Source of the DNA: a virus
Taxonomy: Duplodnaviria; Heunggongvirae; Uroviricota; Caudoviricetes
Reading direction: 5' to 3' (one strand)
Length of the DNA: 41,364 bases
IMG/VR virus record: IMGVR_UViG_2909257012_000006
Span: 1-41,364 of that record
The notes below the pieces were generated by a model that did not search any database, was not told the origin of the DNA, and saw only the letters and a list, made by a program, of their open reading frames with translations. This document shows, piece by piece, positions 1 to 40,850 of this stretch. The first letter of the stretch is position 1. The number at the start of each line of letters is the position of its first letter. Both the position numbers and the translations under genes were made by a program.

Positions 1-1158
1 ATGCTCACCGTTAAGCAGATTGAAGCAGCAAAGCCGAAAGAAAAACCATACCGCCTTCTCGATGGTAATGGCCTGTACCTTTATGTTCCTGTATCCGGGA
101 AAAAGGTATGGCAGCTTCGCTACAAGATTGACGGTAAGGAAAAAATACTGACCGTCGGAAAATATCCGCTTATGACTTTGCAGGAGGCAAGGGATAAAGC
201 ATGGACCGCGAGGAAAGACATCTCGGTTGGCATCGATCCGGTAAAAGCGAAAAAGGCTTCGTCTAATAACAATTCCTTTAGCGCCATTTACAAGGAATGG
301 TACGAGCACAAGAAGCAAGTATGGTCAGTAGGGTATGCGACTGAACTTGCCAAAATGTTTGATGACGACATTTTACCTATCATCGGCGGCCTTGAAATTC
401 AGGATATTGAGCCGATGCAACTGCTGGAAGTAATCCGCAGATTTGAAGATCGCGGTGCAATGGAGCGAGCAAATAAAGCCCGCAGAAGATGCGGCGAGGT
501 TTTCCGTTACGCTATTGTCACTGGTAGGGCTAAATATAACCCGGCACCTGACCTTGCTGACGCCATGAAGGGATACCGCAAGAAAAACTTCCCGTTTCTT
601 CCTGCAGACCAGATCCCGGCATTTAACAAAGCACTGGCAACATTTTCAGGAAGCATCGTATCGCTCATTGCGACCAAAGTTTTACGCTACACAGCCCTCA
701 GAACAAAAGAGCTTCGTTCCATGCTATGGAAGAACGTCGATTTTGAAAACAGGATTATCACCATCGACGCCAGTGTGATGAAGGGACGCAAAATTCATGT
801 GGTTCCTATGTCAGACCAGGTGGTTGAACTTCTCACTACGCTAAGCTCAATCACCAAACCAGTATCAGAGTTTGTTTTTGCCGGGCGCAACGATAAGAAG
901 AAGCCAATCTGCGAGAACGCGGTACTGCTTGTGATCAAACAAATCGGCTATGAGGGTCTGGAAAGCGGTCACGGATTCAGGCATGAATTCAGCACGATTA
1001 TGAACGAGCACGAATGGCCCGCTGATGCTATTGAAGTGCAACTGGCACATGCCAACGGCGGATCTGTGCGCGGGATTTACAACCATGCTCAGTATCTCGA
1101 TAAGCGCAGAGAAATGATGCAATGGTGGGCGGACTGGCTTGATGAAAAGGTGGAGTGA
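1..1158 (+). CDS. int: Tyrosine integrase, P4/IntS-like (argW-targeting type)
   Basis: 385-aa ORF; C-terminal HGFRHEF...AHANGGSVRGIYNH catalytic region; from recall near-identical to E. coli IntS; directly follows xis at window end. Confidence 0.93.
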   Translation: MLTVKQIEAAKPKEKPYRLLDGNGLYLYVPVSGKKVWQLRYKIDGKEKILTVGKYPLMTLQEARDKAWTARKDISVGIDPVKAKKASSNNNSFSAIYKEWYEHKKQVWSVGYATELAKMFDDDILPIIGGLEIQDIEPMQLLEVIRRFEDRGAMERANKARRRCGEVFRYAIVTGRAKYNPAPDLADAMKGYRKKNFPFLPADQIPAFNKALATFSGSIVSLIATKVLRYTALRTKELRSMLWKNVDFENRIITIDASVMKGRKIHVVPMSDQVVELLTTLSSITKPVSEFVFAGRNDKKKPICENAVLLVIKQIGYEGLESGHGFRHEFSTIMNEHEWPADAIEVQLAHANGGSVRGIYNHAQYLDKRREMMQWWADWLDEKVE

Positions 1159-20644: not shown

Positions 20645-20730
20645 ATTGATTATTTCCCTTCTGCTTGCTTATCCCATTCATCGCGGAATTTGGATGGGTT
20701 TGAAGTGGTCAACAAAAACTGGCCACCGAG

Positions 20731-21878
<1,148 letters not shown>

Positions 21879-21976
21879 TATGGCACCTGTGTTGTTCTGA
21901 GGTGAGCATATCACCTCTGTTCAGGTGGCCAAATTCAGTAAACCACTTCAGTTGTCGAAACCTTGAGTTGCCATGT

Positions 21977-25105: not shown

Positions 25106-25597
25106 CTATCCCATACTGGAGAATTCACCATGATATTTTATCCTGGCATTTTCCATTGCCTTTCTAGCCTCCTCGATATCGTCAAAACACCCTACATGAA
25201 TCCTTTTACCATTGACTCTAATTCTTCCAACCCACTTGTTTGCAGCAGAATTAAAAGTCACCCCCTTCACACCAGATGAATTGTTTTTCCTCATCTTGCT
25301 GTTCCATGAGTTTTGAGTGTTAGTAACAACACGAAGATTGGCTATCCGGTTATCAGACCTATCACCATTAATATGGTCAATCACATCGGCTGGCCAATCA
25401 TTGTAAACCATCAGCCATGCAATTCTGTGGACATATAGCCGCATTCCATAAAGTTTTACCTGCAGATATCCATTTGTTTTATAGCCAACAACAGCGCCAT
25501 AGGTAAATCTAGAGGACCGAGGTGGATTCCTCCATGTAAGAATTCCAGTATCTGGATTGTAATTAAAAAGTCTCAATGCATCTTCACGTTTTAACAT
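25106..25597 (-). CDS. HNH endonuclease with AP2-like domain (homing-endonuclease-like), inserted in pR' leader
   Basis: HRIAWLMVYNDWPADVIDHINGDRSDNRIANLR and GVKGVTF...KWVGRIRVNGKRIHVGCFDDIEEARKA motifs; paralog of 3464..3964. Confidence 0.75.
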   Translation of the reverse strand: MLKREDALRLFNYNPDTGILTWRNPPRSSRFTYGAVVGYKTNGYLQVKLYGMRLYVHRIAWLMVYNDWPADVIDHINGDRSDNRIANLRVVTNTQNSWNSKMRKNNSSGVKGVTFNSAANKWVGRIRVNGKRIHVGCFDDIEEARKAMENARIKYHGEFSSMG

Positions 25598-25868: not shown

Positions 25869-26492
25869 CTAACGTGTGACTGCATTCAAAATATTGTCTG
25901 CAATTGACTCTTCTTTGTGGCATTGCACCACCAGAGCGTCATACAGCGGCTTAACAGTGCGTGACCAGGTGGGTTGAGTAAGGTTTGGGATTAGCATCGT
26001 TACAGCGCGATATGCGGCGCTTGCTGGCATCCTTGAATAACCGACACCTTTGCATCTTCCGCACTCTTTCTCAACAACTCTCCCCCACTGCTCCGTTTTG
26101 GCTATATCAACCGCACGGCCTGTACCGTGGCAATCTCTGCATCTTGCGCCCGGCGTCGCGGCACTACGGCAATAATCCGCATAAGCGAATGTTGCGAGCA
26201 CTTGCAGTACCTTTGCCTTAGTATTTCCTTCAAGCTTTGCCACGCCACGGTATTTCCCCGATACCTTGTGTGCAAATTGCATCAGATAGTTGATAGCCTT
26301 TTGTTTGTCATTCTGGCTGAGTTCGTGCTTACCACAGAATGCAGCCATTCCGAATCCGGCCTGTGATTGCGCCATCCCCATAGCAGCCATCACATCGGTA
26401 CCGGAAAGAGAGTCAGAAGCCGTGGCCCGTGGTGAGTCGCTCATCATCGGGCTTTTTGGCGAATGAAATTTAGCTACGCTTTCGAGTCTCAT
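25869..26492 (-). CDS. Q: Late antiterminator Q (lambda type)
   Basis: 207 aa; MRLESVAKFHSPKSPMMSDSPRATASDSLSGTDVMAAMGMAQSQAGFGMAAFCGKHE near-identical to recalled lambda Q. Confidence 0.93.
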   Translation of the reverse strand: MRLESVAKFHSPKSPMMSDSPRATASDSLSGTDVMAAMGMAQSQAGFGMAAFCGKHELSQNDKQKAINYLMQFAHKVSGKYRGVAKLEGNTKAKVLQVLATFAYADYCRSAATPGARCRDCHGTGRAVDIAKTEQWGRVVEKECGRCKGVGYSRMPASAAYRAVTMLIPNLTQPTWSRTVKPLYDALVVQCHKEESIADNILNAVTR

Positions 26493-27903: not shown

Positions 27904-28010
27904 CCTGTTGGTGTTCTTTCACACCGGAGACACCATCGATTCCAGTAAGGTTGCCCGGGTCGAAAGCGATCGCCTTCCTTTCGCTCTCCACATCGATAAC
28001 AGTGCTTCAT
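27837..28010 (-). CDS. NinD-like Cys-rich protein
   Basis: [16 protein letters not shown]...WCLRCE; start overlaps methyltransferase stop (ATGA). Confidence 0.45.
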
Positions 28011-28597
28011 GCGATCACCATTTTGCATGGTTTAATCGCCATGCCGGTAGCCAGTTCAAAATCGGAGTCGCACTGATTGCCCCACATATCCCACCCGGTC
28101 ACTTTGTCGCGGCTAAATAACTCACAGCGCGGCACGTCGCCAAGCAACTTAGCTAACATGTCTCTTACGATCGGTGGTTTTGCACTGTGCTCCATTCTCG
28201 GTGCGGTAAAGTGCTGGCATATGGAAGCGTCCATTCTCTCAGGCAACCGCCCTCGAACAGCAAACAAGCAATCCTCGCTATTTGCCCTGGTCATATGCCC
28301 CATTCCGATCGCACTGTTGCCTTTGTGCTTATTGGTTTTGTGCCAGGTAAAGCCTTTCATAGTCATCAACCTGAATCCCCATGCCTCAACTACCTTTAGC
28401 GCTTCGGCTGGCTGTGTCGGCACCCACCACATCGCTAACAAGCAAGATTCTGGATCCGCTAAATCCCATACTGGCAGTCGGCAAATGTCCTGAACATTCA
28501 TAACATCGTATTTATGTCCAGCACCGCGATTGCCATCGTTGGCTTTGTCGCGATATTGCCAAGGCGGATCTGCGTAAATAAGTCGGTATTTGTTCAT
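28007..28597 (-). CDS. MT-A70 family N6-adenine DNA methyltransferase
   Basis: DPPW motif near N-terminus ([10 protein letters not shown]); 196 aa. Confidence 0.8.
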
Positions 28598-29034
28598 GCA
28601 GCTTTATCTCCCCATCGCGCTTTCCATTCCAGAGCCAGTCTCGCTTCGTCTGACCACTTAACGCCACGCTCTGCACCGAATGCCTGTATAAGCTCTAATA
28701 GCTCCGCAAATTCGCCTACACGCATCCTGCTGGTTGACTGGCCTATTACCACAAAGCCATTCCCGGCAAGGTTAGGAACAACGTCCTGCTGCTTTAATGC
28801 TGCGGTAAACACACACTTCCAGCTTTCTGCATCCAGCCAGCGACCATGCCATTCAACCTGACGCGAAACGTCACCAAGGCAAGCCCAAAGCTTCCGGTTT
28901 TGGTCTAAGCTGCGGTTGCGCTCCTGAATGGTTACTACGATTGGTTTGGTTGGGTCTGGAAGGATTTGCTGGATGGCTTGAATGGCGTTCTGCTGATGGA
29001 TGGGGCTTCTTAGTTCAAACGTTAGTTTCCTCAT
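28594..29034 (-). CDS. ninB: NinB/Orf recombination protein
   Basis: 146 aa; size, position and sequence character match lambda NinB. Confidence 0.8.
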   Translation of the reverse strand: MRKLTFELRSPIHQQNAIQAIQQILPDPTKPIVVTIQERNRSLDQNRKLWACLGDVSRQVEWHGRWLDAESWKCVFTAALKQQDVVPNLAGNGFVVIGQSTSRMRVGEFAELLELIQAFGAERGVKWSDEARLALEWKARWGDKAA

Positions 29035-29251
29035 GGGATGAACTCCAGTGTGCGATGTTAAATTCCCATTTAATTACCTTTGCATACCCAATTTTGAACC
29101 CATCAATACCTATCCACCGCTTGCCACTCCAATAAGCTGTACCACTATGCTTGAAATGATGTGGATGCTTAGATTGAGTGGTCACTGTTACAGGTAAATA
29201 TGGCTTCGGGTATTCCCCATTCCCTGGATAACCAGATTTAATTCTGCTCAT
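29015..29251 (-). CDS. Hypothetical protein (ren position)
   Basis: 78-aa ORF, His/Trp-rich; no motif recognised. Confidence 0.45.
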   Translation of the reverse strand: MSRIKSGYPGNGEYPKPYLPVTVTTQSKHPHHFKHSGTAYWSGKRWIGIDGFKIGYAKVIKWEFNIAHWSSSHEETNV

Positions 29252-29574
29252 TGATACCCTCTCTCACTTAATCGCCTCCACGCTTCGTTAAACTCTTCAC
29301 GAGTTGCGCCGGATTTTCTTTCTTCAAACATCATGCATTCGCTGATGTCTCCCCATGACTTTGGTCGCTTTTCAGCGAACAGATCATCCCATTCGAATAC
29401 CCAGCGGCCTGATTTTCGGTAGTGGTAAATGGTCAGCCATGTTGTGCTGTTCGCTGGATACCCATAGAGAACTTCGACTTTTTGATCACGGTCTTTATGC
29501 TTTTTCAGCAGGATAAAGCCAGCAACCAGCGAAGCTCCGGCAAGAATGACGATTGGAATTTGCCAGTCAGCCAC
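29248..29574 (-). CDS. Hypothetical membrane-anchored protein (ren position)
   Basis: N-terminal hydrophobic helix IPIVILAGASLVAGFILL then soluble domain; 108 aa. Confidence 0.5.
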   Translation of the reverse strand: MADWQIPIVILAGASLVAGFILLKKHKDRDQKVEVLYGYPANSTTWLTIYHYRKSGRWVFEWDDLFAEKRPKSWGDISECMMFEERKSGATREEFNEAWRRLSERGYQ

Positions 29575-29587
29575 ACTTCCCTCTCCC

Positions 29588-29621
29588 CCAAATAAAAAGG
29601 CCTGCGATTACCAGCAGGCCT
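29588..29621 (-). terminator. Rho-independent terminator downstream of the helicase gene (tR2-like)
   Basis: On - strand AGGCCTGC-tggtaatc-GCAGGCCT followed by TTTTTATTT. Confidence 0.7.
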
Positions 29622-29649
29622 GTTATTAGCTCAGTAATGTAGATGGTCA

Positions 29650-31101
29650 TCAGAATCCTCCTTTCTTCTTGGATTGCGGTTCCTCGCGTTCACGGCGGCG
29701 CATTTCAGCAGACTGTTGGTCTGTGTCATAAATAGCGCCATTTGCCTGAATGCAATACACCGTACCGGTATTGCCATGACGATTGAGGCGAAGGATTAGT
29801 TCGGTTTCACCAGGAGGAACGCTGTCATCAAAAGCGCCTTCACGATGGATCCCGACCCAATAATCGCAATCCTGTTCAATCTGCCCTGTATCGCGCGAGT
29901 CACTTGGTAATGGGCGTTTATTGGTTCGGCTTTCCAATGCGCGGTTAAGCTGTGTCAGAAGCACAACAACGCAATCAAGCTCTTTGGCAAGGTTCTTCAG
30001 TCCTTTGGTGATCATGCCGTAAGCAAGGTCGTTGCGATCGGCCTTCTCAGCGGTCATTAGTGTCAGGTAATCGACCAGAATCATGCCAACACATCCTTTT
30101 TCTCGTTTGATTCGACGGCTTTCGCTGACGATTTGAGCCAGAGATAATCCCGGCGTGTCGTCGATGTAAAGCAGGTCGATTTCACTCAAGCGATTGGCTG
30201 TTTCGATCGCCCTGTTGAAGTCACCATCGTAATCACCCTGATAGCCGTCATCAGCGTCATTTGTCGCCGGAAGGTAAAAAATATTCGGGTTAACACCTGA
30301 CTTCTGTCCCACCAGTTTTTCCAGTATCTGGTCACCTGGCATTTCAAGGCTGAACATCAGAGCGGGCTTTTTCTCATGCACTGCGCAGTTGATTGCCATC
30401 TGGCTGTATAGCGTCGTTTTCCCCATCTTAGGGCGAGCGCCAATGACAAACAGAGAGCCTTTCACCAGACCTTTCGGTGACAGCATCCTGTCCAGCGATG
30501 GGATCCCTGTGCTCATTCCTCGTTGTTCTCCTGACGGGTCAAATCGCTTCTCAAGGTCGCTAACCCAGTCTTCCATGACCTCACCAAATGAGCGAAGGCC
30601 GCGACGCGATCCGGTTTTTGCATGGTCTGTCAGTTGCGTGAAAATCGCCTGAATAGCTTCGTACTTCTGCGTTGCAGTCATTCCGTTGCGGGAATAGAGC
30701 AATTCCGTCGCTTCAGTCATGCGGTTGATGGCGTAGCGTTCCATTGCGGTTTCACGAACCTGCATTGCATAGGCAACGATGTTTGCTGCGCTTGGCGTGT
30801 TCTTTGCGATCTCAGCGATATAAGCAAAACCGCCAACAGACGCCGTTAACGATTTACGCTCCAGTTCATCGAAAAGCGTCAGGCCATCTACTGGCTTTTG
30901 CTCCCGGTGCATTCTGGTTATTTCTTCGAAAAGGATTTTGTGTGGTCGGCCGTAAAATGAATCAGGCTTCAGCATCGCCAGAACTTTCTGGACGCGCTCA
31001 CTGCTGTCATCATCCAGAAGCAATCCACCAATCACCGCCTGCTCTGCCTCGATGCTATGGGGCGGCGCATAAAAATTATCGGTCATCGTGTTCACCCTCA
31101 C
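29650..31101 (-). CDS. Replicative DNA helicase, DnaB-like (P22 gene 12 analogue)
   Basis: Walker A GARPKMGKTT and DnaB C-terminal motifs; start may be the internal ATG at 31086. Confidence 0.9.
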   Translation of the reverse strand: MRVNTMTDNFYAPPHSIEAEQAVIGGLLLDDDSSERVQKVLAMLKPDSFYGRPHKILFEEITRMHREQKPVDGLTLFDELERKSLTASVGGFAYIAEIAKNTPSAANIVAYAMQVRETAMERYAINRMTEATELLYSRNGMTATQKYEAIQAIFTQLTDHAKTGSRRGLRSFGEVMEDWVSDLEKRFDPSGEQRGMSTGIPSLDRMLSPKGLVKGSLFVIGARPKMGKTTLYSQMAINCAVHEKKPALMFSLEMPGDQILEKLVGQKSGVNPNIFYLPATNDADDGYQGDYDGDFNRAIETANRLSEIDLLYIDDTPGLSLAQIVSESRRIKREKGCVGMILVDYLTLMTAEKADRNDLAYGMITKGLKNLAKELDCVVVLLTQLNRALESRTNKRPLPSDSRDTGQIEQDCDYWVGIHREGAFDDSVPPGETELILRLNRHGNTGTVYCIQANGAIYDTDQQSAEMRRREREEPQSKKKGGF

Positions 31102-31975
31102 GAACTTTCAGGTAGGTATTATCGTTAAGCAGGAAATCAAATCCCTTTTTGTGCCAGACGGTTCCGCGTTGATGGTTTGGGCGCTCTTCGAACATCCATC
31201 GGCAATTTTCGCCAACGTAGCTCAAATAATTTCTCCAGTCCTGCATCGTGAACCCATGCCCGTCAAGCTGGCGGGTTATCACTCCGGCTTTGCGCCAGAA
31301 CGTTCGGATCTGGTTTTTACGCTTGTCATTCAGTGCGCGGATTCTTGGCGCTTCAGGAAGGATTTCGTGGTAAGCATCGACAACATCCTGACAGCTGACG
31401 GAAGGTTTTTTCTTGTCATACTTTTTGTCTGCTGTGGCACTCTCTAATACGTCAGTATTAGAGATATTATTATTATATTCTTTATCTGTGGTAATTTGCT
31501 GGTAATCTGCTGGTACAGTATTGCTTACAGGCATTGGTATTGCTGGCTTTGAGGTGGTAATTTGCTGGTAATCTGCTGGTACAAAATTTGACTGATAATC
31601 GTCATATTTCTCTACCGAGAAAACTGAGAATTTACCGTGTGAAACCCAGTCAATCATGCCGAGTTTTTTGAACTTTCTAAGCAGGTACTGAACGCGATCT
31701 GGTTTGAGTCCTGTTTCAAACGCCAGAGAGTTTCTACCGCCAAGTAGCTTACCTCTGCCTACCAGAATTTCTCCTGCGTCAGTCATTACATACTCAGGCG
31801 TATGCTTTGCTTTGAGGATTAAGTGAACCCACAGATGTGCTGCTTCTGCGTCCTTGTAAAACGGCACATCCATAATTTTACGGTGCAGCAAGGCATACCC
31901 CTTACCGCTGCTTTGATGCGGTTGTTGTAGCCTTCTGGCCTCTCTGGCTTCGGCTAGATTAGATATGTTACTCAT
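31076..31975 (-). CDS. Replication initiator (lambda O / P22 gene 18 analogue) containing the origin
   Basis: Position between cII and helicase; contains iteron repeats; N-terminal winged-helix-like region. Confidence 0.75.
31488..31584. repeat. Origin iterons: two copies of a 30-bp unit GTGGTAATTTGCTGGTAATCTGCTGGTACA, flanked by AT-rich tract
   Basis: Direct repeats at 31488..31517 and 31555..31584 with related TTGCTGG between; AT-rich run 31458..31486; inside initiator gene as in lambda ori. Confidence 0.65.
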
Positions 31976-35122: not shown

Positions 35123-35207
35123 TGGCACTAACAACTGAAGTGGTTTACTGAATTTGGCCACCTGAACAGAGGTGATATGCTCACCTCAGAACAACACAGG
35201 TGCCATA

Positions 35208-36355
<1,148 letters not shown>

Positions 36356-36405
36356 CTCGGTGGCCAGTTTTTGTTGACCACTTCAAACAGAATAAACACT
36401 GCACT

Positions 36406-40454: not shown

Positions 40455-40568
40455 TAGTGAACTATTATATCTATTTGTATTAAAAGAGTTTTTATAAAAT
40501 AAATCTTCCAAAGCATGTAAAAACACTGTTAATCTTAACGTGTGTGAAACGTGAAGAGAGGTGTTGAA

Positions 40569-40850
40569 ATGAGCATTCATGATTTGTGTGAAGATCAAGA
40601 GCAATGGGCTATGCAGACCCTTATGGGATCAGGAGTTCTTGCAAGGTGCAGAATCCATAACGATGTAATTTTAGACAGCGGAAATGATGCTTCTTCTGCT
40701 TATAAATTAGGAACTTACCTATATCAAAAAGATAATAGCTGCAACTTATTCAATACTCTTACTGAAGCCCGCGACGCAATAAAGGATGCATATGAATCGT
40801 ATTGTGGGATTGATGATTGCCCACAATGCTCAAAATACATTGACGATTAA
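40569..40850 (+). CDS. Hypothetical Cys-containing protein
   Basis: 93 aa from internal ATG; CPQC motif. Confidence 0.45.
   Translation: MSIHDLCEDQEQWAMQTLMGSGVLARCRIHNDVILDSGNDASSAYKLGTYLYQKDNSCNLFNTLTEARDAIKDAYESYCGIDDCPQCSKYIDD

Follow-up and report, generated by a model that had tools for sequence, protein, structure and literature searches.

Closest described systems and gene order of the locus

In bacteriophage lambda, the early-right operon proceeds from gene P through ren, a block carrying ninA and the terminator tR2, and ninB. The lambda Ren protein (NP_040633) is encoded by a small non-essential gene at the replication/nin junction of this operon, while the nin genes of lambda and P22 (ninA to ninH) lie between tR2 and Q as mosaic cassettes with conserved junctions and overlaps of the ATGA type. 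Genes of the nin region are typically closely packed with overlaps (PMC8022706), and nin-type genes are dispensable in phage Sf6 (PMC5630979). The viral genome IMGVR_UViG_2909257012_000006 (41,364 base pairs (bp), analysed over its whole length and referred to below as the window) is a complete P22-like (Lederbergvirus-type) genome, in which two genes without assigned function, named here ORF-A and ORF-B (ORF, open reading frame), lie between tR2 and ninB on the minus strand:

29650..31101, minus: DnaB-type replicative helicase gene, the last replication gene (Pfam DnaB_C, E = 3e-60; DnaB N-terminal domain, E = 1.2e-30)
29575..29650, minus: boundary block of 76 bp, identical to lambda (ninA start, tR2 and the Shine-Dalgarno sequence GGGGGAGAGGGAAGT)
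29567..29650, minus: ninA mini-ORF spanning the terminator, 27 amino acids by translation (MTIYITELITGLLVIAGLFIWGRGKCG), homologous to Sf6 gene 45
29589..29621, minus: intrinsic terminator tR2, AGGCCTGC, loop of 8 nucleotides (nt), GCAGGCCT, then TTTTTATTT (terminator scan and RNA fold)
29248..29574, minus: ORF-A, 108 amino acids, predicted membrane anchor and cytoplasmic alpha/beta domain (phrog_5903, E = 1.3e-75)
29015..29251, minus: ORF-B, 78 amino acids, predicted small basic aromatic-rich beta-barrel (phrog_29435, E = 1.8e-57)
28594..29034, minus: ninB, encoding the Orf recombination mediator, at the right-hand edge of the slot (Pfam NinB, E = 3.8e-54; phrog_72)

It is well supported that ORF-A and ORF-B are real genes, that they occupy the nin slot following tR2 and that they are independent cassettes; their gene structure, mosaic anatomy and independence were observed directly, whereas conclusions on their functions are weak. 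On the minus strand, tR2 is followed by ORF-A, ORF-B, ninB, the MT-A70 gene, NinE, NinF, YbcO, a RusA-like gene and a late-antiterminator-like gene. The stop of ORF-A and the start of ORF-B overlap as ATGA, and the 3' end of ORF-B overlaps ninB by 20 nt. By this order and these overlaps, both are nin-region accessory genes. They resemble the lambda and P22 nin genes in location, overlaps and mosaic junctions, but are not homologous to any named nin protein, and the corresponding sub-slot of lambda holds no gene. The locus is an ordinary case of lambdoid nin-region mosaicism with two catalogued proteins of no assigned function, mildly notable only for the spread of ORF-A across phage types and for the absence of ORF-B annotation from the RefSeq records inspected. 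In the explanation preferred as a whole, two independent accessory cassettes would have been inserted into the first nin slot of a P22-like lambdoid phage, where they would be expressed in an N-dependent manner, ORF-A binding a host factor and ORF-B binding nucleic acid; this combination is tentative and falls somewhat short of probable.

The boundary block and the position of ren

The block at 29650..29575 was 100% identical to lambda 40567-40642 (L104 positions 1168-1243), with all 76 bases matching. It extends from the ATG just past the helicase stop to the last base before the GTG of ORF-A, and contains the ninA mini-ORF, tR2 and the Shine-Dalgarno sequence used in lambda for ninB, the GTG of ORF-A occupying the position of the lambda ninB start codon. 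The Sf6 record labels the same block 'bsq6 boundary sequence' and 'terminator, homology to lambda tR2', and annotates gene 45, the ninA counterpart, as 'similar to phage 21 NinA'. The tR2 hairpin, 28 nt past the helicase stop, is composed of an 8-bp stem with six G-C pairs, an 8-nt loop and a T-run (29621..29598 and onward). Among the 80 IMG/VR loci in which the neighbourhood of ORF-A was counted, the same hairpin was found at most 120 nt upstream of ORF-A in 72, and 15 nt before its start codon in 68. Termination at tR2 has an efficiency of about 0.9 when more than 27 nt separate the terminator from the stop codon before it, and ribosomes near tR2 suppress termination there (PMC4824070).

A first-pass annotation of this DNA had described a strong tR2-like terminator after the helicase gene and two genes between it and ninB, at the position of ren. 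The stem, the T-run and the identity to lambda tR2 confirmed the terminator, and the gene order up to ninB confirmed the two genes. In lambda, ren lies upstream of tR2 whereas ORF-A and ORF-B lie downstream of the identical block, so that the position assigned to them was off by one mosaic boundary. A tempting positional analogy is hereby corrected: the post-tR2 slot is not the ren slot, which matters for regulation.

The ATG of ninA overlaps the helicase TGA as TGATG, and the mini-ORF crosses the tR2 hairpin (window 29567-29652); its translation may tune read-through into the nin region independently of N. In five database proteins (P0001, P0002, P0004, P0006 and P0012), indels in the G-run past tR2 fuse ninA in frame to ORF-A. 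These fusions, of 133-137 amino acids with two hydrophobic segments, are limited to one or two members per cluster and may be artefacts of sequencing or gene calling.

ORF-A and ORF-B as independent cassettes

Both genes were found without the other in related phages. The protein of Sf6 gene 46 (AAQ12235; phrog_5903) belongs to the same family as ORF-A, has the same length of 108 amino acids with 97% amino acid identity over the full length, and is likewise encoded directly after 'bsq6'; in Sf6, genes 47, 48 and 49 then precede ninB where the window has ORF-B. In Salmonella phage Oslo, ninB comes directly after ORF-A. Conversely, ORF-B without ORF-A was found in a prophage of Enterobacter ludwigii, directly upstream of ninB and with the same 20-nt overlap, as well as in other phages. 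The two genes had been presented as a pair, a description that these arrangements contradict. Across the 80 loci, ORF-A was followed by ORF-B in about 24, by Sf6 47/48 in about 40 and immediately by ninB in about 10. In nearly all of them it was preceded by a replication gene, which was DnaB, primase-helicase or lambda P-like, three unrelated types, with an HNH gene in between in 2. HNH homing-endonuclease genes are dispersed in this region of relatives, and in E. coli W284 one separates the helicase gene from ORF-A (L004 2623-3234). DNA of ORF-A was detected in 107 and DNA of ORF-B in 24 of 5,426 complete E. coli genomes; the whole stretch from ninB to the helicase end (at least 80% coverage) was present in 23. 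Sf6 mutants deleted for some or all of genes 46-58 are viable, and lytic passage even selects for them (PMC5630979).

The mosaic structure extends into ORF-B itself, which differs from most of its phrog_29435 relatives by a 14-residue C-terminal tail derived from the ninB junction. This tail ends in SHEETNV, the same seven residues that end the unrelated Sf6 gp49, and both genes overlap the ninB start by 20 nt (window 29015-29034; Sf6, L001 1719-1738). The mosaic junction is therefore located inside the coding 3' end of the cassette preceding ninB. A kinship of ORF-B with Sf6 gp47 or gp49 as a diverged allele was considered and rejected, only the seven-residue junction tail matching gp49. An apparent adjacency of ORF-A and ORF-B in T1-like Klebsiella phages was likewise discarded, the gene upstream of the ORF-B homologue there being unrelated to ORF-A.

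Expression from the early-right transcript

ORF-A begins with a GTG located 23 nt past the terminator stem, with the Shine-Dalgarno sequence GGAGAGGG and the start codon preceded by GGGGGAGAGGG. The ATG of ORF-B is preceded by GAGAGAGGG, a strong Shine-Dalgarno sequence. No promoter-like site was detected on the minus strand between 28400 and 30000 by a simple sigma-70 consensus match, a scan that weak or non-canonical promoters could escape, and it is well supported that ORF-A and ORF-B have no promoter of their own. The only convincing terminator was tR2, upstream of both genes, the other minus-strand site being a weak 5-pair match inside ORF-A. An N-type antiterminator is encoded in the window (PF25694, E = 1.4e-36).

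From the lack of an own promoter and the presence of tR2 upstream, we infer an N-dependent, delayed-early expression. Transcription from the early-right promoter (PR) would reach both genes only if the N-type antiterminator allowed RNA polymerase to pass tR2; they would belong to the delayed-early lytic class and stay silent in the lysogen. Genes of the post-tR2 slot would in this case be N-dependent lytic cassettes and not morons expressed in the lysogen. The term moron, applied to the two genes in the first-pass annotation, does not suit a locus with no promoter-like site, without a downstream terminator of its own (the end of ORF-B overlapping ninB) and with an ORF-A that uses the lambda ninB Shine-Dalgarno sequence. 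What is retained from that description is a set of uncharacterised accessory genes in a variable slot after a true tR2; the ren slot, the moron and the pair are not.

Structure, spread and possible function of ORF-A

The match of ORF-A to phrog_5903 covered its full length (residues 1-108/108), and the ratio of non-synonymous to synonymous substitution rates (dN/dS) was 0.19 against diverged homologues, a value denoting purifying selection. As first described, this 108-residue protein has one N-terminal transmembrane helix, with a Kyte-Doolittle value of 2.52 over residues 6-22 and an AlphaFold helix at residues 5-26 (predicted local distance difference test score, pLDDT, of 83). Conservation was lower in the anchor (0.30) than in the domain (0.71), which spans residues 31-105 with the motif VLYGYP...TWLTIYH.R...W.FEWDDLF..GRPKSWG (family alignment A1). 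The positive-inside rule was followed by all 25 of the 25 members bearing a transmembrane helix, with a mean of 3.5 lysine and arginine residues after the helix versus 0.1 before it, and suggests an N-out/C-in topology with the domain in the cytoplasm. Relatives without a transmembrane helix displayed short amphipathic N-termini and no signal peptide. Net charge of the domain varied from -5 to +5 across the family, while the invariant motif FEWDDLF is aromatic and acidic; the domain showed no catalytic signature and no domain fusions. Sequence-profile searches of the PDB with ORF-A returned chance matches only (E about 1), and Foldseek against BFVD retrieved only family members (Goslar and IME207).

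Homologues were distributed over very different phages. In T1-like phages (the IME207/seszw and HC8A/C1 lineages), the gene is flanked by those for the primase and the helicase and is translationally coupled to the latter through a stop codon that overlaps the start of the next gene, and in the polA phages (about 72-78 kb) it comes directly after DNA_pol_A or one HNH gene later. A T5-like phage carries it within a block of small early genes, and Goslar-type jumbo phages encode a relative near a tubulin-like gene. No replication genes were found near ORF-A in the T5-like and Duffyella contexts. The jumbo-phage relative (L105 2728-4321) has no transmembrane helix; the tubulin-like gene, of PhuZ type, is located two genes upstream of it, and a divergent DNA polymerase gene follows about 4 kb downstream. 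ORF-A would represent a small, predicted membrane-tethered domain common to very different temperate and virulent enterobacterial phages.

In the preferred explanation, a generic N-terminal anchor of low conservation, whose place is taken in some relatives by a short amphipathic helix, would hold ORF-A on the cytoplasmic side of the inner membrane and would present a small, highly conserved alpha/beta domain with FEWDDLF as an invariant surface motif. Because of the tether, the invariant motif, the lack of a conserved charge or catalytic signature, the dispensability in Sf6 and the occurrence in phages sharing only Enterobacterales hosts, it is possible, although on balance not likely, that ORF-A binds a conserved host factor, at the inner membrane or close to it, during lytic growth, in host takeover or counter-defence. 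The broader idea, that ORF-A belongs to a widely shared and unnoticed family of membrane-tethered effectors directed against one inner-membrane host factor in lambdoid, T1-like, T5-like, polA and nucleus-forming jumbo phages, is more doubtful. Its target may be, for instance, a membrane-bound abortive-infection effector or a part of the division or replication machinery, and its fold may be one without solved relative. Identifying a partner of ORF-A could expose a weak point or a defence of the host that many phages deal with in the same manner.

Replication as an alternative role of ORF-A

The phi29 protein p16.7 organises phage DNA replication at the membrane; it is small, made early, carries a membrane anchor and a cytoplasmic domain, and is encoded near replication genes. 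By functional analogy only, ORF-A is comparable, being likewise small and encoded near replication genes, with a predicted N-terminal anchor and cytoplasmic domain. ORF-A could accordingly anchor or regulate the phage replisome at the inner membrane, in the manner of phi29 p16.7 or p1, and travel with replication genes for this reason. Its location beside such genes in four unrelated phage types speaks for this role: after DnaB, primase-helicase or lambda P-like genes in lambdoids, after DNA_pol_A (directly or beyond one HNH gene) in polA phages, between primase and helicase genes with a stop-start overlap in T1-like phages, and 4 kb from a divergent DNA polymerase gene, next to the tubulin-like gene, in Goslar-like phages.

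Several observations are nevertheless at odds with it. A terminator of about 90% efficiency parts ORF-A from the lambdoid replication genes, and the lambdoid linkage is to the tR2 block (72/80 loci), a known recombination junction that is preceded by three non-homologous replication modules. Unlike p16.7, ORF-A has a predicted alpha/beta domain, no conserved positive charge and an invariant acidic motif, which would make it a poor DNA tether. Its dispensability in Sf6 is a further difference from p16.7, Sf6 deletion mutants of genes 46-58, whether partial or complete, replicating well (PMC5630979), and the T5-like and Duffyella contexts provide no neighbouring replication genes. A replication role was on these grounds considered unlikely.

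Exclusion and anti-exclusion

The first-pass annotation had proposed an exclusion or anti-exclusion role. In this case ORF-A and ORF-B would form a ren-like module protecting the lysogen from other phages, or the phage from abortive infection of the Rex type. In favour of this view, the slot is hypervariable and only one mosaic boundary separates it from ren; both genes are accessory, presumably dispensable and without assigned function, and ORF-A is predicted to be membrane-associated, as are Rex-type effectors and several superinfection-exclusion proteins. Ren resembles ORF-A and ORF-B in being encoded by a small non-essential gene at the replication/nin junction, but lies on the other side of tR2 and shares no detectable sequence or profile similarity with them: alignment of family alignments A1 and A3 to lambda Ren with hhalign gave probabilities of 0.7% and 0.05%, respectively, and no Ren-family model matched either protein in the Pfam (E <= 1) or PHROG (E <= 0.1) scans.

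Searches for other known functions gave no significant Pfam match (E <= 1), no NCBIfam match (E <= 10) and no PADLOC-DB family (E <= 10) for either protein. The hidden Markov model and structure searches that had been recommended placed both proteins in families (phrog_5903 and phrog_29435), and yielded no match to a known function or defence system in Pfam, NCBIfam, PADLOC or the PDB. Searching the literature by protein accession, PHROG family and motif turned up nothing, and the family motifs were absent from the supplements of accessory-gene screening papers.

Expression in the lysogen is unlikely given that no own promoter was found, and the two genes assort independently. The ORF-A family occurs in strictly virulent phages, which never form lysogens, and this argues against a lysogen-protecting job. 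Between cI and N, the window carries no rexAB-like genes, the gap there being only about 460 bp. A ren-like role in protecting the lysogen is therefore unlikely, and even with anti-exclusion during lytic growth included, for which no result of the analysis spoke, this explanation is less credible than a role in replication.

ORF-B, a gene apparently missed by annotation

ORF-B matched phrog_29435 over its full length (residues 1-78/78). The 78-residue protein was correctly described as rich in His and Trp, with 6 His and 4 Trp, of which three Trp are conserved in the family and the His are not. Its core (residues 1-64) carries the motif GYPGNGEYP..Y..V.V...AYWSG.RW...F.IGY.KVIKW, and AlphaFold predicted an all-beta structure. 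The family encompassed 12 diverged protein clusters with eight invariant residues, in unrelated phages; the hypothetical protein S13c_00065 of Klebsiella phage VLCpiS13c was 54% identical to ORF-B. No match to Pfam was obtained for any of the 13 family members at E <= 10, and sequence-profile searches of the PDB again returned chance matches only (E about 1).

The Prokaryotic Genome Annotation Pipeline (PGAP) leaves the ORF-B stretch (213 bp, window 29035-29247) unannotated in every E. coli record inspected, for example NZ_CM166349.1 1463869-1464081. That ORF-B is a chance ORF in the spacer before ninB, as PGAP treats it and as its shortness and the overlap of its last 20 nt with ninB could suggest, is highly improbable in view of a dN/dS of 0.16 relative to the Enterobacter ludwigii copy (third codon positions accounting for 29 of the 51 differences), 2-8 stop codons in each of the other five frames, a strong Shine-Dalgarno sequence, the ATGA overlap with ORF-A, the invariant residues shared by the diverged clusters, a pLDDT of 83 and the existence of a PHROG family. 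ORF-B is under purifying selection and appears to have been overlooked by PGAP.

As a strongly basic, aromatic-rich predicted beta-barrel of about 63 residues among nin-type genes of DNA metabolism, ORF-B may bind nucleic acid and act as a dispensable helper of DNA transactions, a role that is doubtful and somewhat less likely than the binding of a host factor by ORF-A. In a myovirus contig from a skin metagenome (L008 4027-5872), an ORF-B relative is wedged between the genes for a DUF3799 (RecE-like) exonuclease and an ERF annealing protein, with stop/start overlaps, a position reminiscent of small accessory recombination genes. A specific link to recombination was not retained: the exonuclease and ERF genes were neighbours in one lineage and NinB in two others, but 11 further loci were mixed (NinX, Dam, SF2 helicase, PAPS reductase and terminase). 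A DUF551/NinX-like domain was rejected as well, hhalign against a NinX protein giving no similarity, and P0070 (428 amino acids, 7 repeats) was discarded as a relative, being a translated tandem repeat.

Points weighing on the combined explanation

The combined explanation has several points against it. Neither experiment nor homology ties ORF-A or ORF-B to a function, and general reasoning is the basis of both proposed mechanisms. That ORF-A is repeatedly encoded next to helicase, primase or polymerase genes suits a replication role at least as well as host-factor binding. The AlphaFold models were built on shallow alignments of 34 and 12 sequences, the fold matches of ORF-B were below significance, and its neighbours are too varied to indicate one partner. 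For the expression of both genes, the consensus scan may have missed a weak promoter, so that expression in the lysogen is possible, and ribosomes translating ninA through the tR2 hairpin could reduce termination and with it the dependence on N.

Other features of the window

About half of the first 25 kb of the window was shared with the E. coli phages phiv205-1, CUS-3 and Kapi1, at 94-97% nucleotide identity. The minus strand carries the late genes and the early-right operon, and the plus strand carries the cI-type repressor and the N-type antiterminator. An Rfam scan of the whole window detected zero RNA families. Further genes of the window were located as follows:

1..1158: integrase gene
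31975..31076, minus: O-like gene
28007..28597, minus: MT-A70 DNA methyltransferase gene, the next nin cassette (Pfam MT-A70, E = 6.7e-25)
26492..25869, minus: late-antiterminator-like gene, whose counterpart in a homologous E. coli prophage is annotated 'antitermination protein'

The late antiterminator gene is adjoined by an HNH-AP2 gene (window 25106-25597). Two copies of an IS3-family insertion sequence (1,258 bp, 100% identical, each with an rve transposase of 272 amino acids) were found in inverted orientation, the first among the late and lysis genes (20698-21955) and the second in the early-left operon (35131-36388). The 13.2 kb between them hold the lysis, Q, nin, replication and immunity genes, and recombination between the two copies would flip this entire segment.

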